NCBI GenBank assembly: GCA_002269645.1
Contig: NIVC01003749.1
Location: forward strand, 1-64,000
Origin: Macrostomum lignano
Taxonomy: Eukaryota
Direction of reading: 5' to 3'
Length of the DNA: 64,000 bases
Shown here: positions 2,718-62,780 of the stretch, piece by piece
Layout: each line of letters begins with the position of its first letter
Position numbering within the stretch: position 1 is the first letter of the stretch
Program-made: the position numbers and the translations under genes
Notes under the pieces: model-generated
What the model was told of the DNA's origin: nothing
Seen by the model: the letters and a program-made list of their open reading frames with translations, nothing else
Database searches by the model: none

Positions 2718-3245
2718 ACTACGTAATGTGCAGAAACTGCCGGGTTTTGGAGGTGAGGTGGGTGTCAGAGCCAATGCAAATTCAACGCCTATCTAAATAC
2801 ATTAGACCTCTTCTAATTGGTCCAGACCCTGTAAGTCATTATGAGACATTTATGCATGTAACTCTCATGTAAATCTAATTATACATGTAATCAGTGTACA
2901 TTCCTAATTGTGTCGTACAGAAGCGACGACCAGTACTATATAGTACGCATAATTAGCGCTTCACCGTAGCAGTTGTACGCAGAAGCGCTCGCGCGCCCAG
3001 CCCCGCACAATGCAGCATTGGTGTACGCAGAATTAACTGTACATATTAACTGTCCATATACTCAAAATTGGCAGAATTAACGCGCGCCCACCCACCCCAT
3101 AACTGTTTATATACCAAACTTCGTGTACGCGCAGAATTGTAGCGCCCACTCATCCAAGAAAATATTATGTGACCCCACAAAATTGGCGGCCCCCCCCGCA
3201 CGCGCGTAGGCATGATGAGTCAGCCGCTGTAAATCGCTGCTGTCC
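2718..3245 (+). repeat. Left terminal inverted repeat (about 528 bp)
   Basis: 2718-3025 is the reverse complement of 10707-11014 with 3 mismatches in 308 bp. The match resumes after a variable internal repeat block and ends at ...GTAAATCGCTGCTGTCC (3245 and 10329). Confidence 0.95.
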
Positions 3246-3415
3246 GTACTGTTATATCCACTCCTTTCATACTTCACCCCTCTAGAATTCTGTCCTCCGT
3301 AGCCACTCCGGGGCAATTACGTCATCCCCAATCCCTCTCCCAGAGTCAAATAAGTTTTCAAAAGGCGTATATATATTAACACAAAAAGCCGGCCGAGCTT
3401 TGATACGTATACGAT

Positions 3416-3919
3416 TTATTTAGCATACACAATTGGGTGATAACCCAAAACGTTTGAATAATAGCGAGCAGGAGCATTTTGCAAACAGTTTACAATCAAG
3501 TATGAGTAGGGGTCGCGAGTAGCATATCCTCATACGTTTTGACTAAACTTTTTGGATTAGTGGGGACAAGCTGCCTTGCAATATGAGACACTGTGCTGGC
3601 ATCCCGTACATTGCGGAATAAAACAAGGTAGTTCGAATTGAGCGACTGAGTTCGGTGCTCCTTACCCTTTGCAAACAGGTTTTGCACAAGATACCAAAGT
3701 CGGAACCCCACGTGGGAGACTTTGCGCGTGAAAAAAAGTTGTAAAAGCGCCACTCTTTTTTATGGCATGCATTTGGTCGTCGACGACAAGTAGAATATTT
3801 GGTTCAGGGACATTTTGTTCAGGGTCAAATGTACACGAACGAAAATTTACAGGGTACGGCAATTCAAACAGTTCAGGATCCGGATAGTGGCCAAACCAGT
3901 CTACGCGAATCGGCGTAGA
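3416..3919 (-). pseudogene. A32/FtsK-like packaging ATPase; Walker A absent; two frameshifts
   Basis: Joined frames read TPIRVDWF...NILLVVDDQM (Walker B)...FFTRKVSH...WYLVQNLFAKGKEHRTQSLNSNYLVLFRNVRD...IARQL...YEDATRDPYSYLIV...HPIVYAK*. Frameshifts at the 7-T run near 3735 and an AT duplication near 3530. AATAAA overlaps the stop. Confidence 0.88.
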
Positions 3920-4262
3920 CTAAAAAAAATGGTTTTTCAGCCACAAATATTACATGAGCCCCGCAGGTCACACTTAGCGGATGCTGTACAGGATGCCGGT
4001 TCATGGCCACCTCCACAGGGACATACTTTGCGATCCACAACTTTAATAAATCTGGCACAGGATCGATACACAAGGGGTCAAAAAATGTCACGCTCTCATC
4101 GGCATGAAGACAAATCAAAGCCCAGTGAGTGCCTGGTAGATTGCCAGTGTCAAAGTTAATCACGTATGCAGCAGGATAAACAGGCTGCGGAATCCTGTCA
4201 ACTGGTGTTACTCGAACAGGGACAGGTAGTATTAGACGTTCTAATATATCTAGACTATTCAT
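3873..4262 (-). CDS. Adenain-like (Polinton PRO) cysteine protease, C-terminus probably truncated
   Basis: Catalytic motifs in the expected order: YVINFD...GTHW (His), FFDPL (Asp), PVQHP (Gln), TCGAH (Cys). Confidence 0.9.
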   Translation of the reverse strand: MNSLDILERLILPVPVRVTPVDRIPQPVYPAAYVINFDTGNLPGTHWALICLHADESVTFFDPLCIDPVPDLLKLWIAKYVPVEVAMNRHPVQHPLSVTCGAHVIFVAEKPFFLVYADSRRLVWPLSGS

Positions 4263-4309
4263 ATCGGCATGAATATGGCCGTTATTCGGGAATAAAAAGA
4301 TGTTTGTTT

Positions 4310-5592
4310 CTACACGTAGTCTAGAATAACCTAACGACCGCGAGTGATTTGCACAGTATTGTCAAAGTAGCCAAACACCAACACGTTGATTCCTGCAGCT
4401 AAAGCAGCAGAAAACTTTATTTGTAGCGTCAGATTCCCTCGCTCGCGAGGCATGCTATGCCCGCCCAGCTCCATGTCGGGCATGAGATTCCAGGCGAAGA
4501 AGCAGTAGCCAGCTCCATAGTCAGAATATGATACGTCAATATCCAGGTCCCGATTCATCTTTCCTAGGCTTTTTAGCAGCATGGCATACTCGCGAGCATA
4601 GTTATGAACACCGAATCGAGGAGTAAACGGTTGTCCACACAGACTGACTCCGTCCTTATACAGAGCGACACTGTCTGCCCAAACGGTTCAAAATTAAACG
4701 GGTTATGTGTAGCCACACCGTTGTATGCGCCGCTGTTCACCATGCCAACAACCACTAGTTTAGGCTTTTGTTCAGGAAATATATTATTGATTGACATGTC
4801 CCGAACACCGCCAGCCACTGAAGTATTGTGCACAACAAGTCGCTCAATCGGATAGATTGCATTCTGTTTGCCTAGTTGTTCTTCAATCTCCAATGCCAAT
4901 TGGGGGTTTGCCTTGACGCGGCGCACATGTAGTTTGGCACTCTCGAGTACCAGCCGCGCATCAACCCCGTCTGCGTGGTTTTCCAGAACGAAGCCGGAAT
5001 TGTGCATGGTCAGCGTAATTACCATATCAGTGTATGGCAGTAGCATTCGGTCGTTGGTAACAAAAAAGTCTAAACTCAGAGGTCCATAAAGGTGAAAGGT
5101 GCGTGAGTTTGCCGCCATCGCCTTGCGAGCTACAAAGCCAGGATTTCCAACCACAGCCATTTGACCTCCAGCGTCCTTTGCGTAGCCCATCATTCTCAGT
5201 TGATTGGTTTTTGAATCGTGTCCGTAATTCAAACACGTGCGAATATAGGCCTTGTAAGCGTGGTTGTTATTGCTCGACTCTACGTGTGTCCCGTTGATTG
5301 TCAACGTGACGTTTTTAAACATGCTTTCAAGGACGTAATTGACCGGCGCAACATTCGAATCAGCAGCAAGATTTGTGCCATTAGACTGCTTAACGCGGGC
5401 CTTTATCTCGAGGTCAATGTCGTTAAGATCGATAAACGTCTCACGACCGACAATCCTAAATTCGACCACGCTGGCATTTTCAACACTGGACACAGGGTGA
5501 ACTTCTTCAGTGGTAGCGCTAATTGCAGCAATTTGGTGTGCGCGAGGAGCAAATAGCTCGAATTCCGACTTTGTACACAGGCACTCAGTCAT
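4310..5592 (-). pseudogene. Major capsid protein (Polinton PY, double jelly-roll), about 425 codons, one frameshift and one premature stop
   Basis: N-terminus KSEFELF...VEFRIVGRETFIDL, middle LYGPLSLDFF and PKLVVVGMV...YNG...NPFNF. A frameshift near 4670 restores VALYKDG...PFTPRF...YAREYAMLLKSLG...GYCFFAWNL...GNLTLQIKF. A TAG at 4331-4333 interrupts the ending R*VILDYV*. Confidence 0.93.
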
Positions 5593-5635
5593 TTTTCTTT
5601 CAACAGCGGCTTAGTGTGATGCTCTAATAGACAGA

Positions 5636-6004
5636 TCAGTTATTGGCACGGGTTTTTTTATTTATAGAGTCGAAAATATCAGAATGCTGCAGTCTTTTTC
5701 TCGTTTTTTTGTTAGTCATCTTTCTTCGTCTTTGTCTGCCGCTACCTCGTTGTGCGACTGTGTCCTTGAAAGCATCTTTAGCTGCCTGGACAGAGTTACG
5801 CAATGTCGCTTCTTTCAAGTTCCCGCCTTGATCGAGTGTGTCGCTAACTGTTGTAGCTAGGGCTCGTGTTCCGTGGCGAAGAATATTTTTGCCAAAACTC
5901 TTTAAAATTGGCAGGGCAAATCGGGCAATGCTGCCAAACAGGCCGTTGCCGCGCTGTGCACCGGAAAATACCGGTAAAGCTCCTCCGATCAAGATTGAAG
6001 GCAT
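5636..6004 (-). CDS. Small basic virion/core protein with amphipathic helix and adenain-type site
   Basis: 122 aa: LIGG|A site, QRGNGLFGSIARFALPILKSFGK amphipathic segment, second QRGSG and an R/K-rich C-terminus. Position between the capsid genes is typical of Polinton-type elements. Confidence 0.75.
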   Translation of the reverse strand: MPSILIGGALPVFSGAQRGNGLFGSIARFALPILKSFGKNILRHGTRALATTVSDTLDQGGNLKEATLRNSVQAAKDAFKDTVAQRGSGRQRRRKMTNKKTRKRLQHSDIFDSINKKTRANN

Positions 6005-6048
6005 ATTGTCGATCAGTTGCTACCTTTTTTTCGTGAAAACTTCTTTAT

Positions 6049-6390
6049 TTATAGCTTAATTTCACGAATGTTGATCGATAAAACAGTTTTGCCTCGAAGA
6101 ATCCGATCCATTAACTTGCCCATATCGTCACAGATTTGCACCTCAATGGTTTTGAATGGGTGTTTCACCAACGGTAAGTAGGATGGATTGACAAACTCGT
6201 AGTACTCTCGTTCGCCGTATACCTTTTCATTCAAAGGAATTGCCCCAAGCAGGGGGACTTTGACGTCTCCAACAATGGCAGAGTCGACAATATTTGAATA
6301 GATGTACATAGTTTGTACACCATTTGTTAAATCGATTGGTCGTTTAGCGGTCTTTGGAGTTTCATTGAAAAATCTTTGCGAAAGAAGTAG
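6049..6390 (-). pseudogene. Minor capsid (penton-like, Polinton PX) C-terminal half only
   Basis: MYIYSNIVDSAIVGDVKVPLLGAIP...YYEFVNPSYLPL...IEVQICDDMGK...GKTVLSINIR matches the Polinton minor capsid C-terminus. The N-terminal half is missing. Confidence 0.85.
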
Positions 6391-7280
6391 AATTGACCCT
6401 CGATTTGTTCTCCAGATAGGTCGGAAATCCGATAAAAATGAGGTGGTCCCGGGCATACTTGAGACACAACGTAAACTTCTTCGCTGTACATATCGTATGC
6501 TTCCTTGTCAAAGGCTCGACGAGATTTTGAAATTCTGACGAAGTCCCCTTCTTAGTAAACTGGTTCATCATATTCAGGATCCTTGTAGAGCTTTTCCCAC
6601 AATTCTTTTTGGTTGTGCAGACCGACACTCGAAGGTTTCATTTCAATAGTAGAGTTTACTGTGTTGTTGTAACTTTTAACCAATATTGGTAAATAGTCGA
6701 TCCAGCGCCACGTGTTTTTATGCTCAAAGTAGCGAGCTAAACGTTTTCGGAAAGTTCTAATTAACCTTTCAGCCATATTTGCCTTGTATACAGAGTTTGT
6801 ACTGTACATTTTGATATTATGGGCTTTCAGTAAGTTCTGCATGCGATTGTTATAAAACTCGGTACCTCGATCAACGTGTAGATATAAAGGCTCAATAGGG
6901 AAGTCTTTGATCATACTTTCAAAAGCCTTTGGAGTGTCGCTTTTCAATTTTATTGGCTGGCAAAAAGCCAATTTACTAAGCACGTCAATTGCAACTAGAA
7001 TATATCGATGACCATCATTCCATTGTTCGTATCGTGACATGTCCATCAAATCCGCTTGCACAGTTTCCATGAAGCCTCCTGACATTACTTTTCCGGTTCG
7101 GAAATTTCTTTTGACCCTCTTGTGCCGGGTGTAGCTCGCTTGAGCTTTCAGCCATTCGTCGGTTTGGCGTCTCGTCAGGGAGGGGACCAGCCGTTTGGCC
7201 TCCTGATATACACGGGCAGCATTTGTAAAAGCGGCGTCCCCCTGTTCGTACACTCTCCGAAGAGCGGTTTTCACCCTCAT
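6388..7280 (-). pseudogene. Polinton-type rve (DDE) integrase with premature stop; chromodomain missing
   Basis: QADLMDM (D), LHVDRGTEF (D), KANMAERLIRT (E). After the TAA at 6552-6554 the frame continues EGDFVRISKSRRAFDK...SEEVYVV...YRISDLSGEQIEGQFY, the usual post-catalytic domain. Confidence 0.93.
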
Positions 7281-7413
7281 TCGCAACTAGATTCGATGCA
7301 CAGCATGAGTAATTACACTTGAACTCCACAGACGGTTTGTCTGAGCAAAGCTTTGAAGTTACAGCTGCGGCACCCATGATCCAAAAACAGATTATAAATC
7401 ATGAAAATGATTT

Positions 7414-8068
7414 CTATTTATAGTTTTTTAACGTCTCGTATTTTACTGCTGGTTTCTGCCGCCTCTTTGGTTCGCGAAGTTGGTATGAAGCATGCCTGTA
7501 GGCATCGCTGCCACGATCTTCATATTTTTTAATTTCATTCAGGCCACTGGCTTGGTCTTTGTGGAAGTCGTTGTGGAAATCACTAGTTCCAATTGCTTGC
7601 TCGACTAAAAAATCGTCTCGATCCGGATCCGTGCCGACTTCTTTTTTCACACTGATTTCTTCTTGTTGGCGTCGTCCTAGTGGAGCTTTTGCAATATCTG
7701 CCTCTTCAGCCAGGGCCCAAAAAGCGGTACTATATTTCGGGCTTGGGCGGTCGCGCCTTTCATTAGATTTAGTCTCCTTCAGTATATCGAAAATATTGCT
7801 TCCTGGCCAGGTTCTTCCATCAAATACAATTTCCCACGACTTGTTGTACTCCAAATTTGGGTATCTTTCTGTCAGCATGTCCCAAATACGTTGTTGTCGT
7901 TCAGGAAAACGAATATTCTTCTTTTGCTTGATCTGACTTAGTTTATTTTGGAGTTGAGTGTTGTATTTAATGAGTTTTTCATATTCTGTTTTAGATACAA
8001 TTTCTCGGGGTGCGCCTTGACTTAGTCTATTAAATTCTTCTTCTGGTACAACAACGTATTTATCTCAT
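7414..8068 (-). pseudogene. Conserved Polinton accessory protein (GSNI-D motif type), frameshift just after the start codon
   Basis: ATG at 8068 followed by a 1-nt shift, then KYVVVPEEEF...coiled-coil...WEIVFDGRTWPGSNIFDIL. The frame is open from about 8060 to the stop at 7414. Confidence 0.65.
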
Positions 8069-8069
8069 T

Positions 8070-8498
8070 TTAGCGACCGAGTAGTCCGCCAAACAGGCTT
8101 GATATTAGCGGTGCAGCAACAGATGCAAGGATGGGTAGAAAGCCACCGACTTGAGGATTCGAGAGAAGCATATTCTTCTTCCTATTTATAGACAATTTTG
8201 TGTCTGCCAATTCACGCAACGATCTTCTGTATCGCTTTAATCGCAGATACTGTTTCGGAGAAAGATCGATATTTCCCCGGAGCACGTTGTGACTCAATTC
8301 ACAGAGACAATGAATCAGTTCCTTGCCTGCACCTCGAATAATTGCCCGCCGAAGAGCGGGACGGGCTTTGGCGAGCTCTGCGAGCTCGCCGCGACAAGAA
8401 CATAGTCTGGAGATTCCGTTTGTCCTTTTGTTTAGCACAAAGATGTTGGTTGCAGTGCACCGCAATTTATGCACAATATATTTATAGACAACTTTCAT
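8070..8498 (-). CDS. Conserved small Polinton protein ending in QxGGFL plus amphipathic helix; start uncertain (8498, or 8403 with a frameshift)
   Basis: LAKARPALRRAII...LIHCLCELSHNVLRGNIDLS...LRELA...QVGGFLPILASVAAPLISSLFGG, a pattern typical of Maverick/adintovirus small virion proteins. Confidence 0.75.
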   Translation of the reverse strand: MKVVYKYIVHKLRCTATNIFVLNKRTNGISRLCSCRGELAELAKARPALRRAIIRGAGKELIHCLCELSHNVLRGNIDLSPKQYLRLKRYRRSLRELADTKLSINRKKNMLLSNPQVGGFLPILASVAAPLISSLFGGLLGR

Positions 8499-8567
8499 AG
8501 CAGTTTGTACGTACCTACAAATTCAGTACAGTAGTAAAACAGTAAAGTTACGCAACAGCTACATGGA

Positions 8568-9068
8568 TTAGACATGCAAAACGCTAGTCACATGATCGTA
8601 CATTTGACAGAGCTCTTTAAAGTTTCGTATTCCAAGGAAAACAAGGCGGCCATTCTTTCCGCATAATAAACATTTAGCCTTGCGAAATGGAGACTTTATT
8701 ACTATTCCATTGAAAACTTCGCACTCCCACTTCACCCAGCGGGACCCGGAGTATGCAATTTGGAAAAAATTTGGCCATCTGTCTACTTCAGCGCGGTAAG
8801 TACTAGTGGTAACAACAACAGAAATTGGTTTACATTGAGGAAAAAGACGCAAAACTTGGTTGACTGAGCGACAACCGAATACAATTGCAGACAAAGAACG
8901 CTGAAAAAAGTTGATTGTACATCTTCCTATTCGCAAATTGAAAAGATTCGCAAAAATTCGCAAATTCGCTCTTGGTCTGCAAAATGTCCGTGCGCTCGCC
9001 CAGTCCAAGTCAGGCATGCGGCTCCATTTCGCGCAAAACACTCGGTTCACACACTCGACGTTCTGCAA
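8568..9068 (-). CDS. TATA-binding-protein-like (TBP fold, two repeats) protein inside the Polinton-like element
   Basis: Repeat 2 IAYSGSRWVKWECEVFNGIVIK...KCLLCGKNGRLVFLGIRNFKELCQMYDHVTSVL aligns to TBP [22 protein letters not shown]...[32 protein letters not shown]. Repeat 1 NRVFCAKWSRMPDL...VFGCRS aligns to NIVSTVNLGCKLDL...CTGAKS. Starts: TTG at 9068, ATG at 9017, or splicing. Confidence 0.7.
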   Translation of the reverse strand: MQNVECVNRVFCAKWSRMPDLDWASARTFCRPRANLRIFANLFNLRIGRCTINFFQRSLSAIVFGCRSVNQVLRLFPQCKPISVVVTTSTYRAEVDRWPNFFQIAYSGSRWVKWECEVFNGIVIKSPFRKAKCLLCGKNGRLVFLGIRNFKELCQMYDHVTSVLHV

Positions 9069-9171
9069 GTAGATTTTTCGGCAGTTTTTACTTCCTATCC
9101 TTCTTGAGGGCTTTCGACCGCTTCTTTATTGGTTCGTTGGCTGCTACTACTTTCGATTGATGCTGTCGCTT

Positions 9172-9806
9172 TCAGGCCTGATTTTTAGGCACCTTTGGCT
9201 GCTTCTCCTTGACAAGCTTTGGTGGTTTCTTTGCTTTCTTGCTTACTTTCTTGGTGCCTACCTTGATTTTTGGAGGTGGCGTCCAATAGCAACGATCGAA
9301 TGCCTGTTTGGCTTCTTCGACAAACTGTAGCTGTTGAATTTTTGGCATTGCGGTCAAAACAGCGTCTCGAATCACGGCCGTATCGAGCGTGAACAGAATC
9401 CTGTAGTAGCCGCTCTTGTTTTTGTAATCCTCTGATCTACAGGCAGTCCGTTTTGGTCGTAAATTTTAAAGTCGTGAGCCAACCCAAACGCTGCACTGTC
9501 ACCTCCAAACGCTGGGTTGTAGCCCAGCAGAGCTAGACTTTCGCTGGAAAGGTGCTCCGCCACAGTGTTGAAAGTGTAGGGTATGCAGCTCTCAATGTGT
9601 TTTTGTGCAATGATGATGAATTCGCGACCTTCGTTGTCAGTACGCACGCCCTTGACGATCAAAACAGGGACCGCATTGGCCAAGTAGAGAGGTCCCTGTT
9701 CGTCATATTCAATGTCAAACGTTTCAACCCCGTTGAAGCTCGGACCTCGCGGTTTGAGCGCCAGCAGCTCTCGCTTGACGCAGTTGAAGTCTTGCACTGT
9801 CTCCAT
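9172..9806 (-). CDS. Hypothetical element protein(s): ORFs 9372-9806 and 9172-9375, probably one frameshifted gene with a Lys-rich tail
   Basis: TATA-like GTATATAAG near 9870 lies upstream of ATG 9806. A 1-nt shift near 9430 joins FKIYDQNGLPVD to SEDYKNKSGYYRILFTLDTAVIRDAVL. Confidence 0.55.
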
Positions 9807-10328
9807 GTCTCTTGTCTGTTTAGAAAAATTTGCAGGTACGGGCGCTTGCAGATGCTCTGGGCTGGTGCTTATATACCCGAGAGTCTCAATATTTTTTTGT
9901 TTTAATTACACGATAACGAGCTTTTTACGGTGTCGTCGTTATCAGGAATTCCGGAAAAAATGAACCTTTTGTTCCTATTTTCGGGTGCTGGCGTTGGAGG
10001 TGTGCTGAAATCCTTGCTCCAAGTTGCTGGTAGTTCAAGCTTTGGCGGCCTGATCCTCGTGCTTTGGCAACCAAAAAATTTCTTGTCAAAAACTGCGTTG
10101 TCTAGACGATTGGGGTGTTAATTGAGCTTGGTGAATTTAGAGAACCGCCGAGAATCCAAATTTTCTTTATTTATAGTTTGCTGTCTGAACAAAAATGACC
10201 TGGCATTTACAAGAATATTTTCAGACCTTGATGACGTGTCTGGCTATAAAGTTAGCATTGTGTCTCGACCGGGTTGTTGCGTAACCCTGCTGCAGGTAGC
10301 TATAGTGAGCCGCGCAGGGCAAAGGGGT

Positions 10329-11014
10329 GGACAGCAGCGATTTACAGCGGCTGACTCATCATGCCTCCGCGCGCGCGGGGGGCCGCCAATTAATTGTGAG
10401 GGGCGACAGAATATTTTCTTGGATGGGTGGGCGCTACAATTCTGCGTGTACACAAATTTTGGGTATGATCGAACAGTTATGGGGTGGGCGGGCGCTACAA
10501 TTCTGCGTGTACACAAATTTTGGGTATGATCGAACAGTTATGGGGTGGGCGGGCGCTACAATTCTGCGCGTACACCAATTTTGGGTGTATATATGGACAG
10601 TAAATATGGACAAGTAATAATATGGACAATTATGGGGTGGGTGGACGCCCTAATTCTGCGTACACCAATTTTAGGTATATGGACAGTTATGGGTGGGTGG
10701 GTACGCTACACCAATGCTGCATTGTGCGGGGCTGGGCGCGCGCGCGCTTCTGCGTACAACTGCTACGGTGAAGCGCTAATTATGCGTACTATATTGTACT
10801 GGTCGTCGCTTCTATACGACACAATTAGGAATGTACACTGATTACATGTATAATTAGATTTACATGAGAGTTACATGCATAAATGTCTCATAATGACTTA
10901 CAGGGTCTGGACCAATTAGAAGAGGTCTAATGTATTTAGATAGGCGTTGAATTTGCATTGGCTCTGACACCCACCTCACCTCCAAAACCCGGCAGTTTCT
11001 GCACATTACGTAGT
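10329..11014 (-). repeat. Right terminal inverted repeat (about 686 bp)
   Basis: Reverse complement of the left TIR, longer because of extra copies of a GTGTAC(A/G)CGCAGAATTGTAGCGCCC...CCCCATAACTG unit. Confidence 0.95.
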
Positions 11015-11020
11015 GTCCTT

Positions 11021-12600: not shown

Positions 12601-13579
12601 AAACTGGCGTAAATTGGCGTTGGTAAGTGGTGTGTTGGCGTCAGTAAAAAATGAAGTATTTTCGTAGCTGCCGAAGAGAAGATGGTTTTGGAAACAGACA
12701 TTGTATTTTGAGCGCTCGTCTTTGAAAGACTCTGGCTCGGTGCCGAATGCCCCGAGCTCTGGGTTCATAGAGGAAGCGGATTTAAGAGGGCAGGTTGTCT
12801 CAGAGGAAGTGGTAATCGCACATTCCAGAGAGGAGGGGAGATCTTTCACGTTATGGCAGTCAGAGATGTCAGTGGGGTGGGGAGGTCAAGATCCCAAAGG
12901 CCGTAGCTCAGCTTCGAGCTTTACTCCCACATCCCCATTCCTACAGATCCCCACTCCCACATCCCCACTCCTGTAGATCCCCTACCCTATAGATCCTCAC
13001 TCCTTCAGATCCCCTATCCCAAATCCACACTCACAGAATCCCGATGAAGTGTATATATAGTCTGGTTCCTTAAAGTTCCCTTGATCATATCTATTCAATG
13101 CTTACCGAACATCTCTGACCGTCTCTCTCGCTTAAGAATTAGTGGCTCAGCCAGGATTTGTTTAGAATGCCAGAAGCATTAGAAGCGGGGGCTTTTGTTG
13201 GAGTTGGAGATGAAGGAAGATGAGGAAGATGAGAAACTTATTTGTCTATGGCAATACGTACAGTGTATTCGCGAGTCGCTAAGCTGCGAAATCAAAAATA
13301 TGCTTAAGCGGTGCATAAGGTCTCAGCAAAACCGGAGTATTACACCATTTTACCTCCTATTTTTAACAAAGTCTTGTTCAAAAGAAACAAGCAGAACTTC
13401 AATTCAAACACTAAGAAATATCAGCCATTGCGGAAGTTCAAATCAAACAAAGTCCTTTTCTATTGAAGTTCTGCTTGTTTCTTTTGAACGGGACTTTGTT
13501 CAATGTGGGAGGTAAAATGGTGTTATCGTCTGGCCTAATCACTGAACAAACAACAACTTTAGCAGCAGGGGCTTTAGCA

Positions 13580-14822
13580 GCAAAGGCTTTAGCACCAGAG
13601 GCTTTAGCACCAGAGGCTTTAGCACCAGAGGCGCCAGCACCAGAGGCTTTAGCACCAGAGGCTTTAGCACCAGAGGCTTTAGCACCAGAGGCTTTAGCAC
13701 CAGAGGCTTTAGCACCAGAGGCTTTAGCACCAGAGGCTTTAGCACCAGAGGCTTTAGCACCAGAGGCGCCAGCACCAGAGGCTTTAGCACCAGAGGCGCC
13801 AGCACCAGAGGCGCCAGCACCAGAGGCGCCAGCACCAGAGGCGCCAGCACCAGAGGCGCCAGCACCAGAGGCGCCAGCACCAGAGGCGCCAGCACCAGAG
13901 GCGCCAGCACCAGAGGCGCCAGCACCAGAGGCGCCAGCACCAGAGGCGCCAGCACCAGAGGCGCCAGCACCAGAGGCGCCAGCACCAGAGGCGCCAGCAC
14001 CAGAGGCGCCAGCACCAGAGGCGCCAGCACCAGAGGCGCCAGCACCAGAGGCGCCAGCACCAGAGGCGCCAGCACCAGAGGCGCCAGCACCAGAGGCGCC
14101 AGCACCAGAGGCGCCAGCACCAGAGGCGCCAGCACCAGAGGCGCCAGCACCAGAGGCGCCAGCACCAGAGGCGCCAGCACCAGAGGCGCCAGCACCAGAG
14201 GCGCCAGCACCAGAGGCGCCAGCACCAGAGGCGCCAGCACCAGAGGCGCCAGCACCAGAGGCGCCAGCACCAGAGGCGCCAGCACCAGAGGCGCCAGCAC
14301 CAGAGGCGCCAGCACCAGAGGCGCCAGCACCAGAGGCGCCAGCACCAGAGGCGCCAGCACCAGAGGCGCCAGCACCAGAGGCGCCAGCACCAGAGGCGCC
14401 AGCACCAGAGGCGCCAGCACCAGAGGCGCCAGCACCAGAGGCGCCAGCACCAGAGGCGCCAGCACCAGAGGCGCCAGCACCAGAGGCGCCAGCACCAGAG
14501 GCGCCAGCACCAGAGGCGCCAGCACCAGAGGCGCCAGCACCAGAGGCGCCAGCACCAGAGGCGCCAGCACCAGAGGCGCCAGCACCAGAGGCGCCAGCAC
14601 CAGAGGCGCCAGCACCAGAGGCGCCAGCACCAGAGGCGCCAGCACCAGAGGCGCCAGCACCAGAGGCGCCAGCACCAGAGGCGCCAGCACCAGAGGCGCC
14701 AGCACCAGAGGCGCCAGCACCAGAGGCGCCAGCACCAGAGGCGCCAGCACCAGAGGCGCCAGCACCAGAGGCGCCAGCACCAGAGGCGCCAGCACCTGAG
14801 GCGCCAGCACCAGAGGCGCCAG
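13580..14822 (+). repeat. 15-bp tandem array (GCACCAGAGGCGCCA)n, about 83 copies
   Basis: Near-perfect 15-mers with a GCTTTA variant at the left end and no indels seen. Confidence 0.95.
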
Positions 14823-15339
14823 TACCAGAGACGCCAAATCTATACTGCAAAGAAGCGCCATATAATGCAGCCACCCGATCGTTGGCGCCCCAGCGCAACC
14901 GGGGTGCTCACACCTACTCATAAATACAGAATCCCTCATTTTCTCTACTTGCAGTGCAGAGGCCGCATAGCCAACCATAAGCATTCTCACAATTACAGAT
15001 AAGCGTTGTGTTCAGGCGGAGTATAACTACGGTACATTTAACCAGATTACTTTTAATGCACATCAATTGACTAAAACAACTGCCTAGCGACGTACTCGAA
15101 AAGTATAATTTTGTAGTTACTTTCAGCTCGAAGGAATCTGATTTTAATAAAGGTAAGCTTATAATCAATATACACATCTAAAATCATATATACGAGTATA
15201 AAGGTATTTTCGACAAAATTCCCAAGGCTTACGAATAAGTTTATGACGCTAAAAACAGTTAGCATTTTTGTATTTGACTGTCTCTGTGTCGAGAGTACAG
15301 TGAGGTGTCTAGAGGGTACACTGGCACTGGCATTCAATG

Positions 15340-17330
15340 ACATGCAGTGCTACAGGCCTTCAAAAGGCACTGCTACAGGCTTTCATAAGGCACTGGAACA
15401 GGCCTTCAAAAGGCACTGCTACAGGCTTTCATAAGGCACTGCAACAGGCCTTCAAAAGGCACTGCTACAGGCTTTCATAAGGCACTGGAACAGGCCTTCA
15501 AAAGGCACTGCTACAGGCTTTCATAAGGCACTGGAACAGGCCTTCAAAAGTCACTGCTACAGGCTTTCATAAGGCACTGCAACAGGCCTTCAAAAGGCAC
15601 TGCTACAGGCTTTCATAAGGCACTGCAACAGGCTTTCATAAGGCACTGCAACAGGCCTTCAAAAGGCACTGCAACAGGCTTTCATAAGGCACTGCAACAG
15701 GCCTTCAAAAGGCACTGCTACAGGCTTTCATAAGGCACTGCAACAGGCTTTCATAAGGCACTGCAACAGGCCTTCAAAAGGCACTGCAACAGGCCTTCAA
15801 AAGGCACTGCAACAGGCTTTCATAAGGCACTGCAACAGGCATTCAAAAGGCACTGCTACAGGCTTTCATAAGGCACTGCAACAGGCTTTCAAAAGGCACT
15901 GCTACAGGCTTTCATAAGGCACTGCAACAGGCCTTCAAAAGGCACTGCTACAGGCTTTCATAAGGCACTGCAACAGGCTTTCATAAGGCACTGCAACAGG
16001 CCTTCAAAAGGCACTGCTACAGGCTTTCATAAGGCACTGCAACAGGCCTTCAAAAGTCACTGCTACAGGCTTTCATAAGGCACTGCAACAGGCTTTCATA
16101 AGGCACTGCAACAGGCCTTCAAAAGGCACTGCAACAGGCTTTCATAAGGCACTGCAACAGGCCTTCAAAAGGCACTGCTACAGGCTTTCATAAGGCACTG
16201 CTACAGGCTTTCATAAGGCACTGCAACAGGCCTTCAAAAGGCACTGCAACAGGCCTTCAAAAGGCACTGCAACAGGCTTTCATAAGGCACTGCAACAGGC
16301 ATTCAAAAGGCACTGCTACAGGCTTTCATAAGGCACTGCAACAGGCATTCAAAAGGCACTGCTACAGGCTTTCATAAGGCACTGCAACAGGCCTTCAAAA
16401 GGCACTGCTACAGGCTTTCATAAGGCACTGCAACAGGCTTTCATAAGGCACTGCAACAGGCCTTCAAAAGGCACTGCAACAGGCTTTCATAAGGCACTGC
16501 AACAGGCCTTCAAAAGGCACTGCTACAGGCTTTCATAAGGCACTGCAACAGGCTTTCATAAGGCACTGCAACAGGCCTTCAAAAGGCACTGCAACAGGCT
16601 TTCATAAGGCACTGCAACAGGCTTTCATAAGGCACTGCAACAGGCCTTCAAAAGGCACTGCAACAGGCCTTCAAAAGGCACTGCAACAGGCTTTCATAAG
16701 GCACTGCAACAGGCCTTCAAAAGGCACTGCAACAGGCATTCAAAAGGCACTGCTACAGGCTTTCATAAGGCACTGCAACAGGCCTTCAAAAGGCACTGCT
16801 ACAGGCTTTCATAAGGCACTGCAACAGGCTTTCATAAGGCACTGCAACAGGCCTTCAAAAGGCACTGCTACAGGCTTTCATAAGGCACTGCAACAGGCTT
16901 TCATAAGGCACTGCAACAGGCATTCAAAAGGCACTGCAACAGGCCTTCAAAAGGCACTGCTACAGGCTTTCATAAGGCACTGCAACAGGCTTTCATAAGG
17001 CGCTGCTACAGGCTTTCATAAGGCACTACAACAGGCTTTCATAAGGCACTGCAACAGGCCTTCAAAAGGCACTGCTACAGGCTTTCATAAGGCACTGCAA
17101 CAGGCTTTCATAAGGCACTGCTACAGGCCTTCAAAAGGCACTGCTACAGGCTTTCATAAGGCACTACAACAGGCTTTCATAAGGCACTGCAACAGGCCTT
17201 CAAAAGGCACTGCTACAGGCTTTCATAAGGCACTGCAACAGGCCTTCAAAAGGCACTGCTACAGGCTTTCATAAGGCACTGCTACAGGCCTTCATAAGGC
17301 ACTGCAACAGGCTTTCATAAGGCACTGCTA
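15340..17330 (+). repeat. 23-bp satellite AAGGCACTGC(A/T)ACAGGC(C/T)TTCA(A/T), about 86 copies
   Basis: Direct reading; variants interleave. Confidence 0.95.
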
Positions 17331-17482: not shown

Positions 17483-18592
17483 ATGCCATTGATAAGACTG
17501 ACAAAGCCAGTGCTGTTCCTGCTGGCGCTACTGCTGCTGGCCCTGGGCACGCATCGAAAGATCTTCAGCGATCGCGGCCATTCTGTCATTTCTCCAAGCC
17601 GCAGCGCCATGAAAACAAAGGACACGGTGCCAGCGACTGTTGACAACCCGCTACTGTCGGGTGCCTGCGGCGCCTACAGTGAGCTCCGCAGCGTCAACTT
17701 TCTGCACAAGTCCATCAGCGAGAGCATCTGCGAAGGCGTCGCCGCCTACACCATCGTGGACAGCGCGTTTCCGCTTTGCCGACTCAAGCAGCACCTGCCG
17801 CTGGTCCTCACCGAAGGCGTCAGAGCTGCAAGCGTGCAGACCTTCATCAGAAGCCCCCTCACCCAGAGAAACGTCTCCAGCTTCGTCTACTCGAGTCCCG
17901 ACTTCATCTCGACCAGCATCCGCAAAGAGCACATCTTCGAGGAGAGGAACGTCCGTAACATGCAGCGAATCATTCAGAAGCTGGCCGCCAAGTCGCCCGT
18001 CACCTTTGTGGACGTCGGCTCGAACATCGGCGTGTTCACCCTGTCGATGCTCGATCTCGGAGTGCCCGTCATCGCGCTGGATGCGAACATCCGCAACTTG
18101 ATTCGAATCAAGCTGTCAGCCGAGGCGGTTGAGCCGCCTCACAAGCTGCACCTGCTGTGGAACTTCGTCAGCAGGCAGGTGTCGCTCATGTACCTGAACT
18201 TTCCGAAGGATTGCAACATCGGCGGCGCTACCAAGTTCGGCAGGGCCGTCGTCGACACGATCCCAGTTATGTCGTCGACCGCGGACTCCATCGTGCCGCT
18301 TATCGACACCAAGCTGGTCGTGTTGAAGGTCGACATCGAAGGAGGCGAAGGCGAGTTCTTCAAGAGCGCGAAGAAGCTGTTCGAAAGCTTCACAATTCCC
18401 GTGGTGCACATGGAGTGGCTGAAGAAGCACATGAGCGAGGAGGAGCGCCAGTTCATGATCAGCTTCTTCGCTGGGAGGCGCTACAGCCCGAGGACCATGA
18501 AAGATCTAACCAAGTTGATAAACATCAGCCACACAGGGTATCAGGGAGACGACCTCATTTGGGTGCACAAGAACTTTGAAGGTGGAATATGA
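17483..18592 (+). CDS. FkbM-family (Methyltransf_21-like) SAM-dependent methyltransferase, intronless, N-terminal signal anchor
   Basis: 369 aa, GC-rich. FVDVGSNIGVFTL (motif I), IALDAN, LKVDIEGGE, VHMEW; hydrophobic N-terminus VLFLLALLLLAL. Confidence 0.88.
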   Translation: MPLIRLTKPVLFLLALLLLALGTHRKIFSDRGHSVISPSRSAMKTKDTVPATVDNPLLSGACGAYSELRSVNFLHKSISESICEGVAAYTIVDSAFPLCRLKQHLPLVLTEGVRAASVQTFIRSPLTQRNVSSFVYSSPDFISTSIRKEHIFEERNVRNMQRIIQKLAAKSPVTFVDVGSNIGVFTLSMLDLGVPVIALDANIRNLIRIKLSAEAVEPPHKLHLLWNFVSRQVSLMYLNFPKDCNIGGATKFGRAVVDTIPVMSSTADSIVPLIDTKLVVLKVDIEGGEGEFFKSAKKLFESFTIPVVHMEWLKKHMSEEERQFMISFFAGRRYSPRTMKDLTKLINISHTGYQGDDLIWVHKNFEGGI

Positions 18593-22816: not shown

Positions 22817-23937
22817 CTACAGTCTGCATGTAAGAATCGGTAGAATCCTGGAAATTGCCATGGAGTTATCCATTAACATCTTGTGAGTGTAGCTCAGGTG
22901 CATGAACTTGTGAACTGTGTAAGAACTGTTCGGTATTTTCTTTGTCTCAAAGTTGGTAGCATTGAGCCTTTTGCAGTGCTGCTGCTTCATCTTGGGAAGA
23001 CTCCCCAGATTCTTTGCCCGGCAAAGTTTCTTCAGCCTTTTTGGAATCCATGCCACATCCCAGAGGGCTGGAAGGCGTCTGCCTCGGCCAGCATGTTGCC
23101 GCACCAGTCCACAGGTCGGTCGCTCTGCTCCAGTGCCGTGTAATTCTTGTAGAATGTGTGCAGCATTCTGGGTCCCGTGACGTACACCGCATCGCGATGA
23201 CCTCTCTTGGTCTTGTTGGCCCAATTCTGCTCAAACCATGTCGGCCAGGTCTTCAGCACGAAGCTCAGGAAGCTGTGATTCGCTCGGCTCATCATCACCG
23301 CATTTGAAATCAGTGCCGGAAGATTGAACGTGAAAACTGCGTGCTCAGTAGGCTCCTGACTCCACACTGCTGACTCACAGTCGAAGTTCGGAGTCAGCCC
23401 CGCTCCCTGAAGCTGCGACGGTCTCAGCAGCGGTGTCGGATCTCGAAGCAGCTCCACATCCGTGTCGACGTACAGACCGCCGACGTGGTGCAGCACGACC
23501 AGACGGCCGATGTCCGATCGCTCCAGCCCGTTGACCAGCTTGCGGTAGCTTTGAACAAGGTACGGATAGTGCTTCGAGATGAGCTCGGAGATCTGCTTGT
23601 CGTCCCAATGCATGAAGTGCCAGGCCTGGATTCGGCTACCGTTACTCAGCCGTGCCCAGGAGCGCACAATGGGAATCAGCTTGGCTGGCACTCGGCCGTC
23701 TTTGCTGGTCCAGTGCACCAGCGGCGGGATGGAGTCCGGGAACTGGGAGGGCAGCTCGCCGCAAGGCAGCCCGTCGTGCAACGGTAGGGACGTCGGCGTA
23801 CGTGCAGCAACCTCCTGAGCTTTACATTTATAGGTACGAGTCGTTTGCGCAATGAAATACGCTGTTCTAACTGACACGAATGTCAGGACAATTAAAATTA
23901 GCAGACGCTTTTGCTTCCATGTTATAATGCCGAGCAT
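22817..23937 (-). CDS. GT32/DXD-family glycosyltransferase (OCH1/SUR1-like), intronless type II membrane protein, one frameshift near 23065
   Basis: IPPLVHWTSK, FMHWDD, ERSDIGRLVVLHHVGGLYVDTD (DXD), SNAVMMSRANHSF, TGPRML. One extra C at CAGCCC|TCTGG joins ORF 23032-23937 to the frame ending HKFMHLSY...TCRL* at 22817. Confidence 0.85.
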
Positions 23938-49200: not shown

Positions 49201-50443
49201 TTATTAGTGAAGTAGTTTTCATTTCTGCTCAAGATTGCTCACTCAAGGGTAAAACTTCTGTTCTATGTGGAGAGCTTTTAGAGCAAAGAAAGCAAGAAAT
49301 TTAGTCAAGATTTGGTATGAAAACCGACCCCCTGAGCATTACTCATTCAGCCTCTTGCTTTCACGCTTTGCATCTGCAGCTAAAATTAGTAACGAAAAGC
49401 ACCGCAATAAGCATTGGTTTAACTACTGCCTAATCTCTTATTAAAGATAGATGACCTTTAACTGACACATTGACCGATTCTCTAATTAAAGACAGATGAC
49501 CATTTAGCTTGCACAATGACCAATTCTATAACTGAAGACAGCTATGACCATTTAGCTAGCACAATGACAGATGACCATTTAGCTGGCACAATGACCAATT
49601 CTCTAATTGAACACAGCTATGACCATTTAGCTAGCACAATGACCAATTTTCTAATTAAAGACAGCTATGACCATTAGTTGGCACAATGACCAATTCTATA
49701 GTTAAAGACAGCTATGACCATTAGTTGGTACAATGACCAATTCTCTAATTGAAGACAGCTATGACCATTAGTTGGCACAATGACCAATTCTCTAATTGAA
49801 GACAGCTATGACCATTAGTTGGCACAATGACCAATTCTATAGTTAAAGACAGCTATGACCATTAGTTGGCACAATGACCAATTCTCTAATTGAAGACAGC
49901 TATGACCATTAGTTGGCACAATGACCAATTCTATAGTTAAAGACAGCTATGACCATTAGTTGGCACAATGACCAATTCTTTAGTTAAAGACAGCTATGAC
50001 CATTAGTTGGCACAATGACCAATTCTCTAATTAAAAAAACAAGCTACCAACGTCCCACCAAAATCAGACTGGGTTACCTTGTCCAGCGCCATCTCCAGTT
50101 TGAGTTTCTCAGCCTCGCGAGCCAGAACATTGAACGGGGCGTAAATCTTGATAAACACCAGCGGGTGGTCGCCGCCGTCGTTGTACTCGTAGGTCTCGGT
50201 TTCGATTCCCGGTCGGCGAGATTTCAACGTGTCCAAAAAGATTTGCCGCAATTGCGGCTTCAAGTCCGTGTGATCATCGTGATCGCAGTCCCGGTAGGTC
50301 AGCACGTAGTCGACATTGGGCAGGTGGGTTCCAGTCCATTTAAACTCGGTTGGGCCAAGGATGTCGTCCGGTTCGCTCGATCCCAGTCCGCTATTCACCA
50401 TCAAGCCTGGGTGGCTGCTGCCGCCCAGTTTTTCGACGTCCAT
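31211..50443 (-). CDS. ANO: Anoctamin/TMEM16 family channel or scramblase, 18-19 exons, about 1039 aa
   Basis: Phase-consistent GT-AG exons: 50443-50078, 47397-47322, 46748-46648, 46570-46498, 44331-43917, 41970-41887, 41813-41597, 40903-40814, 40394-40239, 40137-40101, 38346-38237, 38145-37985, 37203-37014, 36350-36066, 34251-34127, (34024-33965), 33608-33208, 32461-32369, 31290-31211. Motifs [61 protein letters not shown]. Confidence 0.92.
31620..32305 (+). repeat. 33/35-bp minisatellite in the last anoctamin intron
   Basis: CACTGGCGGGAAGGCACTG(C/A)AGGATCAAGGAGAGT units. Confidence 0.9.
34440..36000 (+). repeat. 21-bp minisatellite (ATTAGATGGAATCTGAGG(G/T)AG)n
   Basis: Direct reading; intronic. 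Confidence 0.93.
37255..37800 (+). repeat. 13-bp-based minisatellite (GACACCTCTTGAA and variants)
   Basis: Direct reading; intronic. Confidence 0.9.
38395..40070 (+). repeat. 22/23-bp minisatellite (AGTG(T/C)AGTGACGCTAAGGTGGG)n
   Basis: Direct reading; fills almost the whole intron 40100-38347. Confidence 0.93.
40495..40760 (+). repeat. 30-bp minisatellite (GCCCAGCAACTGAGGATCTGGGAGTCT(G/T)TA)n
   Basis: Direct reading; intronic. Confidence 0.9.
41130..41560 (+). repeat. About 66-67-bp tandem repeat, about 6.5 copies
   Basis: AGCG(A/G)GGGACGAGA(T/C)TTTTTAATGAATGTACATTCAATGCCACGATAGATAGTCGCCTATCCTTTC units with no spacers. Confidence 0.9.
42040..42380 (+). repeat. 20-bp minisatellite (TTCTGTCTAACAGGATTCGC)n
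   Basis: Direct reading. Confidence 0.9.
42955..43810 (+). repeat. About 22-bp variable GC-rich minisatellite (GGGGCGCCAAATCTGGGAATC)
   Basis: Direct reading; variable G-runs. Confidence 0.9.
44570..46388 (+). repeat. About 18-bp minisatellite (CTGGCGCCCCCTGTGTAG)n with variable C-runs
   Basis: Direct reading; intronic. Confidence 0.93.
47693..47960 (+). mobile_element. tRNA-derived SINE with a conserved CORE/Nin-like central domain
   Basis: A box TAGCCGAGTGG (47700), B box GGCTCGATTCCC (about 47747), then GTGTCCTTAAGCAATACACTTAAC...CACCCAGCTGTAAAATGGG, resembling the central domain of V/CORE/Deu-type SINEs. Confidence 0.7.
48040..48255. repeat. About 200-bp dispersed repeat, second copy at about 53085-53280
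   Basis: Both copies share AGAGGCAGGGGG..GTGTGCACCCTGG..CACTTTAAGCGACAT...CCGGCGAGAGGCATTACTGCCCATTCC...GGATACGTACGCAG in the same orientation. Confidence 0.85.
48430..48850 (+). repeat. 16-bp minisatellite (TTCGGGTTTATGATAT)n
   Basis: Direct reading. Confidence 0.9.
49440..50030 (+). repeat. 47-bp minisatellite just inside anoctamin intron 1
   Basis: GACCATTAGTTGGCACAATGACCAATTCT(C/A)TA(A/G)TT(G/A)AAGACAGCTAT units. Confidence 0.9.
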
Positions 50444-50561
50444 GGCTCAGTGGCTGAAAGCGTGCTTTCTTATTATCTAATGCGAAGAGAAGGGTCTTTC
50501 GGAATCCTTGACCTGACCGCTTGGTATGAGATGGCTTTGTAGGGAAGGGAAAGACTTAATT

Positions 50562-51745
<1,184 letters not shown>

Positions 51746-52121
51746 ATAGGAGACATTAACACAGACACTAAGACACAAAGACAGACACAGACGAGCAGAA
51801 AAGCTCTCAAGCAATTAAGAAGAGAGAGCATGCAGACTAAACGAAACCCATCTATTGCTAAAATGATTACAAGGATAAGACAGCTGCTTAGGAGAAACTG
51901 CTTCAGCTTGACACAAAAATGGACAAAGAAAATTACACAGATAGAACAATATTGACTCAGGAGGCATCAGACATTTGCTAAAAATAATCCGAAATTAACA
52001 ACATAATCTTCACCTATGCTGGATGAGAGACATTGTAAAAAATCAAGTAACGAAATCAATCATGGTTTACTACGCAAAATGTTGAAAATATACACAGAGC
52101 ACAATAACGCTTTATTACAGG

Positions 52122-59700: not shown

Positions 59701-60750
59701 AGCCACTATGCTTGCACCAATACTCAACTCTTGACTTGTTCCAAATATTTGTCCTACATCAAAGTGACTATTCAGTATTTGGATTGTTAACTTTCCTGTT
59801 TTAATTCAAACAAAATCTTCAGTTAAGTAAATTTGATTCCAAATACTTCAAATATTTGTCCTTTCTGGGTTTATAATTGACTTAGAAAGAAAATAAAAAT
59901 CTGTATTTTATTGTTAACTTTGTTATACAAAGTAAAATAATTGTGCTAAAGTTTCAATTTTGCACCTATTCACAAGTCAGCTAGCAGTTGCACATGTATA
60001 TTTAATAAGTCATGTTATTTTTCAATTATTATAATCATATTTTTCCTAGAAAAAAAACCTATATGCATAATAAATAAAAACTTGTAATTAAATTATTTAA
60101 TTGAAAGATTTTAGATTAAGTATTATATTTATTCTTTTTTAATTAAAGTTAGGGCAAGATCCCAGTTCCAAAAATTTAGATTTTTCAAACCTTTTACTGT
60201 AATAAAAAAACTAGCAAAATAATTAGGAATATAAATTTAAACATACTTTGTGGTCCAGAAAGGTCTCCCGGATTACAAACAAAGTTTTCTCTACACTGGA
60301 TTGATGGATTGGGCTGAAACTTGACCTGCTTAAACTTTATTCTAAATATTTTTTGTCTAAAAATCTTAGCAATTGCTAAAAAATCATGAAATTACAGCAG
60401 TTTTTCTAAAAAACACCGTTTTTGTTAAATCAGTTGGGTTTTAGCACAATCTGATATGCAGCTGTAAGTCAGTGCTCCACATGATAACCTTTGATGTCGA
60501 TACAAGTCTGCAGGCACTTCTTAAAGCTATTATAAGGCTGTTGACCGCAAAGTCGACTGGTATATCCTGCATTACCTGCATTATCCGTGCCTTAAGCTCA
60601 TCCAGGCTGTCCACTAACTGTCGGTAGACATTGTCTTTTACCCATCCCCAGACACCATACATGCGCAACTTCTGAAATTACGCTGGCCGTGCGACTTAGT
60701 TTTCGATAAAAAATGCGACTTACCTATGAAAGAGCCAAGCAAAAACTTTA

Positions 60751-60822
60751 GGTAAACGGCAGGAGTAACTATGACTATTTTTTTAAAGCTAAATGCTTCG
60801 CCAGCTAATTAGTGCTGCGTGC
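60751..60822 (+). pseudogene. Degenerate about 70-nt 28S rRNA fragment spanning the R2/I-PpoI target site
   Basis: GGTAAACGGCAGGAGTAACTATGACT-ATTTTTTTAAAGCT-AAATGCTTCGCCAGCTAATTAGTG versus conserved 28S GGTAAACGGCGGGAGTAACTATGACT-CTCTTAAGGTAGCC-AAATGCCTCGTCATCTAATTAGTG. Confidence 0.75.
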
Positions 60823-62149: not shown

Positions 62150-62780
62150 GTTGCTTCTTTTTGTGACTTACCTAATCCTTTTTGCGACTTACTTAATCCT
62201 TTTTGCGACTTACCTAATCCTTTTGCGACTTACCTAACCCTTTTGCGACTTACCTAATCCTTTTTGCGACTTACTTAATCCTTTTTGCGACTTACTTAAT
62301 CCTTTTGCGACTTACCTAACCCTTTGTGACTTACCTAATCCTTTTTGCGACTTACCTAATCCTTTTTGCGACTTACCTAATCCTTTTGCGACTTACCTAA
62401 CCCTTTTGCGACTTACCTAATCCTTTTTGCAACTTACTTAATCCTTTTTGCGACTTACTTAATCCTTTTGCGACTTACCTAACCCTTTGTGACTTACCTA
62501 ATCCTTTTTGCGACTTACCTAATCCTTTTTGCGACTTACCTAATCCTTTTGCGACTTACCTAATCCTTTTTGGGACTTACCTAATCCTTTTTGCGACTTA
62601 CCTAATCCTTTTTGCGACTTACCTAATCCTTTTTGCGACTTACCTAATCCTTTTTGCGACTTACCTAATCCTTTTTGGACTTACCTAATCCTTTTTGCGA
62701 CTTACCTAACCCTTTTGCGACTTACCTGATTCCTGTTGCGACTTACCTGATCCTTTTTGCGACTTACCTGATTATTTTTA
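62150..62780 (+). repeat. 20-22-bp minisatellite (TTTTTGCGACTTACCTAATCC)n
   Basis: Direct reading. Confidence 0.93.

Follow-up and report, generated by a model that had tools for sequence, protein, structure and literature searches.

A divergent TBP homolog of Polinton-like elements in Macrostomum lignano and its probable splicing to an SSB-like exon

Results

The window element and its copies

The window analysed here, a stretch of 64,000 nucleotides of Macrostomum lignano contig NIVC01003749.1, holds an element of 8.3 kb bounded by terminal inverted repeats (TIRs) of 308 nt that are 99% complementary to each other (Table 1). The TIRs, the 6-bp target duplication and the rve integrase are traits of Polinton/Maverick elements and adintoviruses. 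On the minus strand of the element, a frame of 166 codons is open from 8568 to 9068, and this frame, which a sequence-only reading had described as TBP-like, is the subject of this study.

Table 1. Features of the window element, in window coordinates
Feature	Position	Strand	Remarks
Left terminal inverted repeat	2718..3025		6-bp target duplication at 2712-2717
Packaging-ATPase-like gene remnant	3499..3913	(-)	frameshift near 3733
Cysteine-protease-like gene	3873..4262	(-)	3′ end altered
Putative major capsid gene	4313..5592	(-)	frameshift near 4640-4700
Basic core-like gene	5636..6004	(-)
CTATAAATA box	5659..5667	(-)	before major capsid gene
CTATAAATA box	6046..6054	(-)	before basic core-like gene
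Putative penton gene, remnant	6049..6384	(-)
rve integrase	6384..7280	(-)	stop near 6552, cut by deletion; Pfam rve E 1.7e-8
Conserved element gene	7414..8064	(-)
CTATAAATA box	7415..7423	(-)	before integrase
pX/GasderminX-like gene	8070..8423	(-)
CTATAAATA box	8183..8191	(-)	before 7414-8064 gene
CTATAAATA box	8479..8487	(-)	before pX/GasderminX-like gene
TBP-like domain, putative exon 2	8568..9062	(-)	stop codon 8570-8568
Putative intron	9063..9261	(-)	donor GT 9261-9260, acceptor TTGCAG 9068-9063
Putative exon 1, ~180-aa domain	9262..9806	(-)	frameshift near 9447-9429 in window copy
GGTATATAAG box	9867..9877	(-)	upstream of SSB-TBP gene; kept in families A, B
CTATAAATA box	10168..10176	(-)	its gene mostly deleted in window copy
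Right terminal inverted repeat	10707..11014		308 nt; 6-bp target duplication at 11015-11020

The genes that we take to encode penton, core and protease proteins are labelled from general knowledge, and the presumed pX/GasderminX-like gene is named after adintovirus usage. The capsid, penton, protease and ATPase set has homologs in pPolB-bearing elements of the same genome, the capsid gene matching that of one such lineage, family 2, at E 7e-32; a jelly-roll capsid is putative.

A search of the genome with the TBP-like frame gave 89 matches among 95 candidates scored, and these fall into family A (about 97%) and family B (78%). The capsid gene of the element lies 3.5–6 kb downstream of the frame in 40 of 42 near-full-length copies, the other two standing at contig ends, which together with the TIRs and the integrase upholds the original proposal that the frame is carried by a Polinton-like element. 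No tblastn match to pPolB was obtained in the window or in five family A/B stretches; pPolB was found in families 2 and 5–8 and is common among the other Polintons here. The window family is thus a polymerase-less derivative, and families A and B look like polymerase-less satellites of other Polintons. Elements of both families measure about 10 kb from TIR to TIR and carry integrase and virion genes with no pPolB (L052-L054, L095, L096; window 2718-11014). Family B comprises many identical copies and has a Fic/DOC domain gene near one end (L052:9422-9901, L096:1638-2441; Pfam E 2.3e-14).

The window copy derives from family A by deletion and is itself defective. It had been described as free of lesions, a description that does not hold: besides the frameshift in putative exon 1, it carries 21 extra nucleotides, in frame, near 8947, an insertion that is lacking in 28 of 30 fetched loci, is shared with just one identical copy among the 30 and is missing from the contigs of all four sequencing runs. 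At a second locus (L001, G000:C49:211878-220177) the TBP-like frame and the left TIR are identical to those of the window copy, and the two are probably one insertion assembled twice, or a duplication. Elsewhere in the window are a second, 3-kb element with inverted arms of 105 nt (60250-63291), single-frame genes for an FkbM-type methyltransferase and a DXD glycosyltransferase (17483-18592 and 23032-23937), and long tandem arrays that include a 23-nt unit and 8/12-nt units (13500-17200 and 50400-52000).

The frame encodes a divergent TBP homolog

Taken alone, the window protein had no Pfam match at E ≤ 1, and six of its seven matches to solved structures were to TBP, at E values of only 0.76–1. 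The picture sharpened with a profile of eight family members that included no cellular TBP: 35 of its 37 PDB matches were TBP chains, and 14 matches had E < 1e-3 (best 8.4e-6). The Pfam TBP family matched the family B copy (E 8.5e-5) and three relatives outside this genome, one of which (P0003) passes the cut-off, and hhalign against clear TBPs gave 96.5%. An AlphaFold model of the TBP domain, built from the family alignment (pLDDT 67, pTM 0.55), had 44 Foldseek matches at E ≤ 1e-3, and all 38 rows listed were TBPs (TM about 0.44); with VIA-align the top five of 48,161 chains were TBPs (Z 7.3–8.7). Among viral models (BFVD), the best fold matches were NCLDV TBPs (E 1e-7 to 1e-3), with herpesvirus BcRF1/U58/UL87 also present. 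The HHpred/Pfam and AlphaFold plus Foldseek checks named in the sequence-only reading thus returned TBP matches, and profile, Pfam (for the relatives) and fold evidence agree with its alignment of the frame to both TBP repeats. The saddle fold that it named as support was matched less evenly: the two TBP halves were matched, but superposition on TBPs at an rmsd of 8–9 Å leaves the saddle geometry blurred. Judged by profiles and predicted structure, the frame is a real, divergent TBP homolog.

Identity to solved TBPs is 16–21%. On the DNA-binding face, two of the four intercalating phenylalanines, one of two asparagines and neither of two threonines of cellular TBP are kept, and helix 2 is short in the window type; both statements depend on the alignment. 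The phenylalanine and asparagine losses and the short helix suggest that DNA binding by the viral TBP is possibly altered or lost. The C-terminal stirrup of TBP is acidic and contacts TFIIB, with which TBP forms a classic pair, and its E-x-E motif is present in six of six window-type proteins.

Comparison of single copies of families A and B gave an omega of 0.08–0.095 for the TBP domain (0.088 in one estimate) at a dS of about 1.6, so that the proposed dN/dS comparison points to purifying selection, with omega about 0.09. An unrooted tree of 22 rows placed the viral TBPs in three long-branch groups, none of them beside the host TBP, with the window type and a more distant, alpha type on one side of a 97/97 split. 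The grouping is tentative in view of the long branches; the separation of the viral groups from the host TBP bears out the view that the frame is not a recent copy of the host gene. In the host, the core domains of TBP and of a TRF2-like gene have no intron (L057:4713-5369; L058:4345-5535), and the TFIIB core is interrupted by one.

TBP genes across Polinton families

A search of the genome with PF00352 gave 150 matches among 150 candidates scored, mostly in multi-copy families. Family 2 has a clear TBP gene in 13 fetched loci (Pfam E about 1e-23 in the two tested), placed at the end of the virion cassette and with pPolB beyond it in most loci; its ATPase has a weak Pox_A32 match only. Public records from Macrostomum lignano that are 88–89% identical to the family 2 TBP are named ‘hypothetical’ or ‘TATA-box-binding protein’. 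Family 3 has a TBP gene of its own. The alpha-type TBP, which matched at 83 of 96 candidates scored, is located upstream of the polymerase region in five families. With A and B counted as one, all eight capsid-gene Polinton families sampled contain a TBP-like gene; some families of this sample were picked via TBP and five via the capsid gene, and two loci picked via pPolB (L073-L076) had no capsid cassette and were left out of the count. The split SSB-TBP layout described below is found in six of the eight families, and families 2 and 3 have an unspliced TBP.

Relatives of the TBP exist outside this genome. None of the TBP-like frame or of the capsid gene was found in the viral contig collection, and no related loci were found in the metagenome contig collection. 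Fifteen IMG/VR loci with TBPs do not resemble Polintons, TBP being the only one of 18 reference proteins that matched them.

Several gene arrangements were met along the way. In one alpha-type family the TBP-like exon continues in frame into a deoxynucleoside kinase (L094:939-2345, a frame of 469 aa), and frames of 473 aa occur at two other places. What we take by eye to be dUTPase-like and PLA2X-like genes are present in alpha-type families (L059, L061, L065, L068, L070), and families 2 and 3 have PC4-like genes together with a presumed exonuclease-like gene overlapping the start of TBP (L097:7270-7932, L064:5734-6465, L039:4281-5156).

A start without a start codon

The frame had been taken for a gene of 166 aa with a protein beginning ‘LQ’, and neither point survives. 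Position 9068 begins a TTG codon, and the TTGCAG at 9068-9063 behaves as a splice acceptor; the first ATG (9017) was rejected as a start since it is missing in the sister family B. Among the distinct family A/B loci listed, all 29 have an in-frame TTGCAG directly ahead of the TBP domain; a further locus whose start is frameshifted was omitted from this tally. In the five alpha-type families (22 loci), a pyrimidine tract and YAG stand exactly at the first codon in 15, the other seven being frameshifted copies with the acceptor 1–10 nt off. An upstream in-frame ATG is missing in 13 of the 15 exact loci, and in one alpha-type family the AG of the acceptor lies within a stop codon. The window-type acceptor has no pyrimidine tract.

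An in-frame donor is found at the equal protein position, near the end of the upstream ORF, in eight of eight lineages compared, and in the window family it reads AAG/GTAGG (9262/9261). The 12-codon stretch leading up to it closes with PxK(I/L/x)(K/L), as in PPPKIK, PAKIL or PVKDL, and aligns with PLPQLQ of the host TBP, directly before NIV, from which it appears that exon 1 supplies the start of TBP strand 1. Similarity ends at the donor point in four lineages, two of them from outside this genome, and two Logan proteins (55–59% identity) cease to be similar directly past it. The stretch between donor and acceptor measures 196–206 nt in family A, including lengths that are not multiples of three, and 67 nt in family B; unspliced read-through would add a variable lysine-rich tail to the upstream ORF. 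Of 20 family A loci, 15 have an uninterrupted, in-frame exon 1, the window copy being among the other five. With an omega of 0.08, exon 1 is as constrained as exon 2 (both 0.08–0.09). In public gene models, an alpha-type copy has another intron removed within the same SSB gene, giving a protein that is not fused and has an acidic tail; model P0017 stops two residues past the donor, with its last exon unplaced. The phase-0 position of the donor is a weak argument on its own because phase 0 was common in unrelated ORFs of the elements as well, at 13 of their 23 donor-like sites. Programmed frameshifting from the upstream ORF was considered and rejected because families A and B do not have the same frame offset.

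Contigs of four sequencing runs, which are RNA only by guess, cross both donor and acceptor unspliced. The 9062-9262 joint was not seen among 15 of the 16 joints in run contigs, nor a leader-like loose end at the acceptor among 24 of the 69 loose ends, and such contigs show presence, not absence. The protein database searches spanned 91–291, 104–333 and 38–315 residues, which places the fused form outside their range; a search without length limit returned three proteins, none of them a fused SSB-TBP. Taken together, the conserved sites strongly imply splicing, and the TBP frame most likely forms the second of two exons of an SSB-TBP gene.

The last 20 bases of the Macrostomum lignano spliced leader have 62 matches in the genome (control 0). 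At the three matches fetched (L101-L103) no GT follows the leader, as expected of retrocopies of trans-spliced mRNAs; other matches stand in arrays.

A possible resemblance of exon 1 to single-stranded DNA binding proteins

No family was found for exon 1 among Pfam, PHROGs or PDB profiles, and the ESM Atlas had no usable match for either exon. The exon 1 model has a pLDDT of 36. Against 48,161 chains it ranked ASFV CP312R first (Z 5.5, 139 residues aligned, rmsd 5.3), followed by T7 gp2.5 (Z 3.6) and the Enc34 SSB (Z 3.2), with DUF2815 at rank 5; the best Z lies below the 7–8 that the structure-comparison tool reaches by chance. The kind of protein at the top nevertheless agrees with a guess made by eye before the search, and on that account we read exon 1, with low confidence, as most resembling the OB-fold SSBs of the gp2.5/CP312R type. 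T7 gp2.5 has an acidic C-terminal tail. Unspliced alpha-type tails likewise end acidic; no such tail was met in the window type, where the tail is lysine-rich (basic) and variable. Window-type and alpha-type exons 1 may be homologous, a weak relationship by sequence (hhalign 12%, E 0.0024). In families 2 and 3, where TBP starts with an ATG of its own, PC4-like genes are found instead. CP312R is reported to bind ssDNA (PMC9963768).

Strand-specific boxes precede the virion genes

The sequence CTATAAATA occurs seven times in the window against 0.63 expected, six times on the coding strand of the element. In each of four A/B elements, TATAAATA is present six or seven times on the coding strand and not at all on the opposite strand (about 0.3 expected). 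In the two families these boxes lie at corresponding points in front of the integrase, virion and accessory genes; the rest of the window has four in 49 kb. The SSB-TBP gene is preceded by GGTATATAAG, which differs from the virion-gene box.

Family 2 had no TATAAATA within the stretches checked. There, TTAAGAA stands ahead of both the ATPase start and the TBP start at 13 of 13 loci, and ahead of the start of the capsid gene at 7 of 10. In the five alpha families TATAAG is found 37 times on the coding and twice on the opposite strand, with 7.7 expected. Family 3 showed no clear single box, and the count of short motifs in upstream windows of families 3–8 was noisy. Three TBP clades thus pair with three strand-specific boxes before virion genes: TATAAATA, TTAAGAA and TATAAGC. 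None of the eight capsid-gene families sampled is without a TBP, hence there is no contrast set for the boxes.

Discussion

We have described a gene in Polinton-like elements whose probable second exon encodes a TBP homolog under purifying selection, with conserved splice-site sequences before it and lineage-specific boxes in front of the virion genes. The reading that we favour, and consider somewhat probable, is that the elements encode their own late-gene factor, an SSB-TBP fusion that sits on replicating DNA, reads the box and brings in TFIIB and Pol II of the host. The frame at 8568-9068 would be exon 2 of one alternatively spliced gene, whose unspliced transcript would give an SSB-like protein with a tail and whose spliced transcript would give the fusion. 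The SSB part, which is suggested by a weak model, would bind ssDNA from strand-displacement replication of the element, which in the window family would depend on a polymerase from other, pPolB-bearing Polintons in this genome. The TBP part would bind the lineage-specific TATA-like box in front of the virion, packaging and integrase genes and use its conserved acidic stirrup to recruit host TFIIB and Pol II, so that virion genes would be transcribed on replicating copies. Splicing, binding to DNA and to TFIIB, and the coupling to replication are all predictions of this reading. The family 2 TBP gene, which stands behind its own TTAAGAA box, is a misfit with a simple early-factor scheme; in the window family, unlike family 2, the TBP gene has no virion-gene box. 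With less assurance, in that we rate it possible and not probable, we suggest that one gene yields both a replication SSB and the SSB-TBP fusion, that the fusion loads host TFIIB and Pol II exclusively on element DNA in replication, and that this forms a Polinton late switch in which TBPs have co-evolved with their own TATA variants into promoter codes that stay separate among the many Polinton families of a single nucleus.

Use of the boxes by the viral TBP is the point at which other explanations enter. As a canonical TATA box, TATAAATA could be read by host TBP, and for this reason the box alone does not prove use by the viral protein. The suggestion in the sequence-only reading that the factor drives the element's own promoters gains support in that the box is found at corresponding positions in both families, A and B, although their synonymous sites are close to saturated. 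The same reading also raised interference with the host, and it is conceivable, if rather unlikely, that a spliced SSB-TBP is real, that host TBP reads the boxes, and that the viral TBP is a decoy or adaptor which sequesters host TFIIB or TBP regulators and dampens host transcription, or which serves replication or packaging. A DNA face short of two of its four phenylalanines beside an invariant E-x-E on the TFIIB side would suit such a role, as would the canonical box itself. The family 2 box TTAAGAA departs from the host consensus, as generally known, and yet precedes virion genes, and box and TBP clade change together over three groups, though three is few. Baculovirus late promoters have a TAAG core, and two of the three boxes share it, which raises the very unlikely alternative that a helper-virus polymerase reads the boxes and that the TBP-like domain merely adapts the element to that machinery. 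Families A and B do need help, since they have no pPolB, and virophage-like promoter sharing is described for protist elements; against this, the window box has no TAAG, introns of spliceosomal type point to host Pol II, pPolB is abundant among the other Polintons of this genome, and no helper was seen.

The structure of the gene itself may also be read differently. A host spliced leader ending in ATG could be trans-spliced at the same acceptor and so bring an in-frame start codon, or the TTG could be a near-cognate start, giving a stand-alone TBP with no SSB fusion. The leader is reported to end in ATG and the trans-splice acceptor motif to be YTNCAG (PMC8629364), which the window acceptor fits, flatworm acceptors are often used by both cis- and trans-splicing (PMC12582326), the leader end is present at the 62 genomic places noted above, and the pyrimidine tract is missing from the window-type acceptor. 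We consider this unlikely all the same, as it leaves unexplained the conserved in-frame donor and an exon 1 end that completes strand 1; a TTG-type start is excluded in the family where a stop codon forms the acceptor, and leader trans-splicing could coexist with cis-splicing. Hardly credible is the last alternative, a captured host TBP in decay with no role, to which the damage of the window copy might point. An omega of 0.08–0.095 at a dS of about 1.6, the presence of the gene in every family sampled and its relatives outside the genome speak against it, and at family level the selection signal indicates that it is already refuted.

Compared with cellular TBP and TRF (PF00352), the window type shares the two-repeat saddle fold, the first-strand asparagine, two of four phenylalanines and the C-terminal E-x-E, and differs in its low identity, short helix 2, two lost phenylalanines, missing start codon and apparent fusion to an SSB-like domain. 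The herpesvirus vTBPs (KSHV ORF24, EBV BcRF1, CMV UL87) are likewise TBP-fold domains within larger viral proteins. KSHV ORF24, a viral TBP mimic, is reported to use a virus-specific TATA-like box before late genes after replication has started; it works in a complex of six proteins, binds Pol II directly, and its model is called incompatible with TFIIB (PMC12529657). A TATA-like box before late genes was found here also, canonical in the window family and non-canonical in family 2. The Polinton proteins differ from the herpesvirus ones in keeping the TFIIB-side residues, in having an SSB-like extra domain and in that no partner complex was seen. NCLDV TBP-like proteins (ASFV B263R and others), which gave the best BFVD fold matches, serve a virus-encoded RNA polymerase, whereas none was seen in these elements of 10–20 kb.

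Adintoviruses, Polintons and MELD viruses have the same TIRs, 6-bp target duplication, rve integrase and capsid-protease-ATPase cassette, and differ from families A and B in that the latter have no pPolB. The sequence-only reading knew of no Polinton TBP. A label ‘TBP’ for a MELD virus does already exist in a figure legend of Starrett et al. (PMC8502044; preprint 10.1101/697771), and to this extent the claim needs correction; it is only a label, with no family, promoter or splicing named in the available part of the text and no match to TBP, TATA or Macrostomum in the part of the supplement at hand. The TBP genes noted in Cymbomonas elements concern mirusvirus-like elements (PMC10675990). A literature search, with most subscription papers outside its reach, found no SSB-TBP splice. 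The SSBs of the gp2.5, Enc34 and CP312R kind are the top structural matches of exon 1, and the alpha-type tails are acidic like that of gp2.5; exon 1 differs in having no sequence match, a low-confidence model and, in the window type, a basic and variable tail. We know of no TBP fusion among these SSBs. The TBP itself, as a homolog recognised by profile and fold, is firm, and the new parts would be the SSB fusion and the box specificity.

If the proposed mechanism is correct, TBP would be a near-core gene of Polintons, overlooked because of its split structure and missing start codon, and further spliced TBP genes would be predicted to lie hidden in other Polintons, missed by annotation based on ORFs. 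The SSB-TBP fusion would then achieve with two domains what takes herpesviruses six proteins. It would supply a named factor and a box for each lineage in the activation of virion genes of endogenous animal Polintons, and couple their expression to replication, in a laboratory-type flatworm with dozens of copies of each family.
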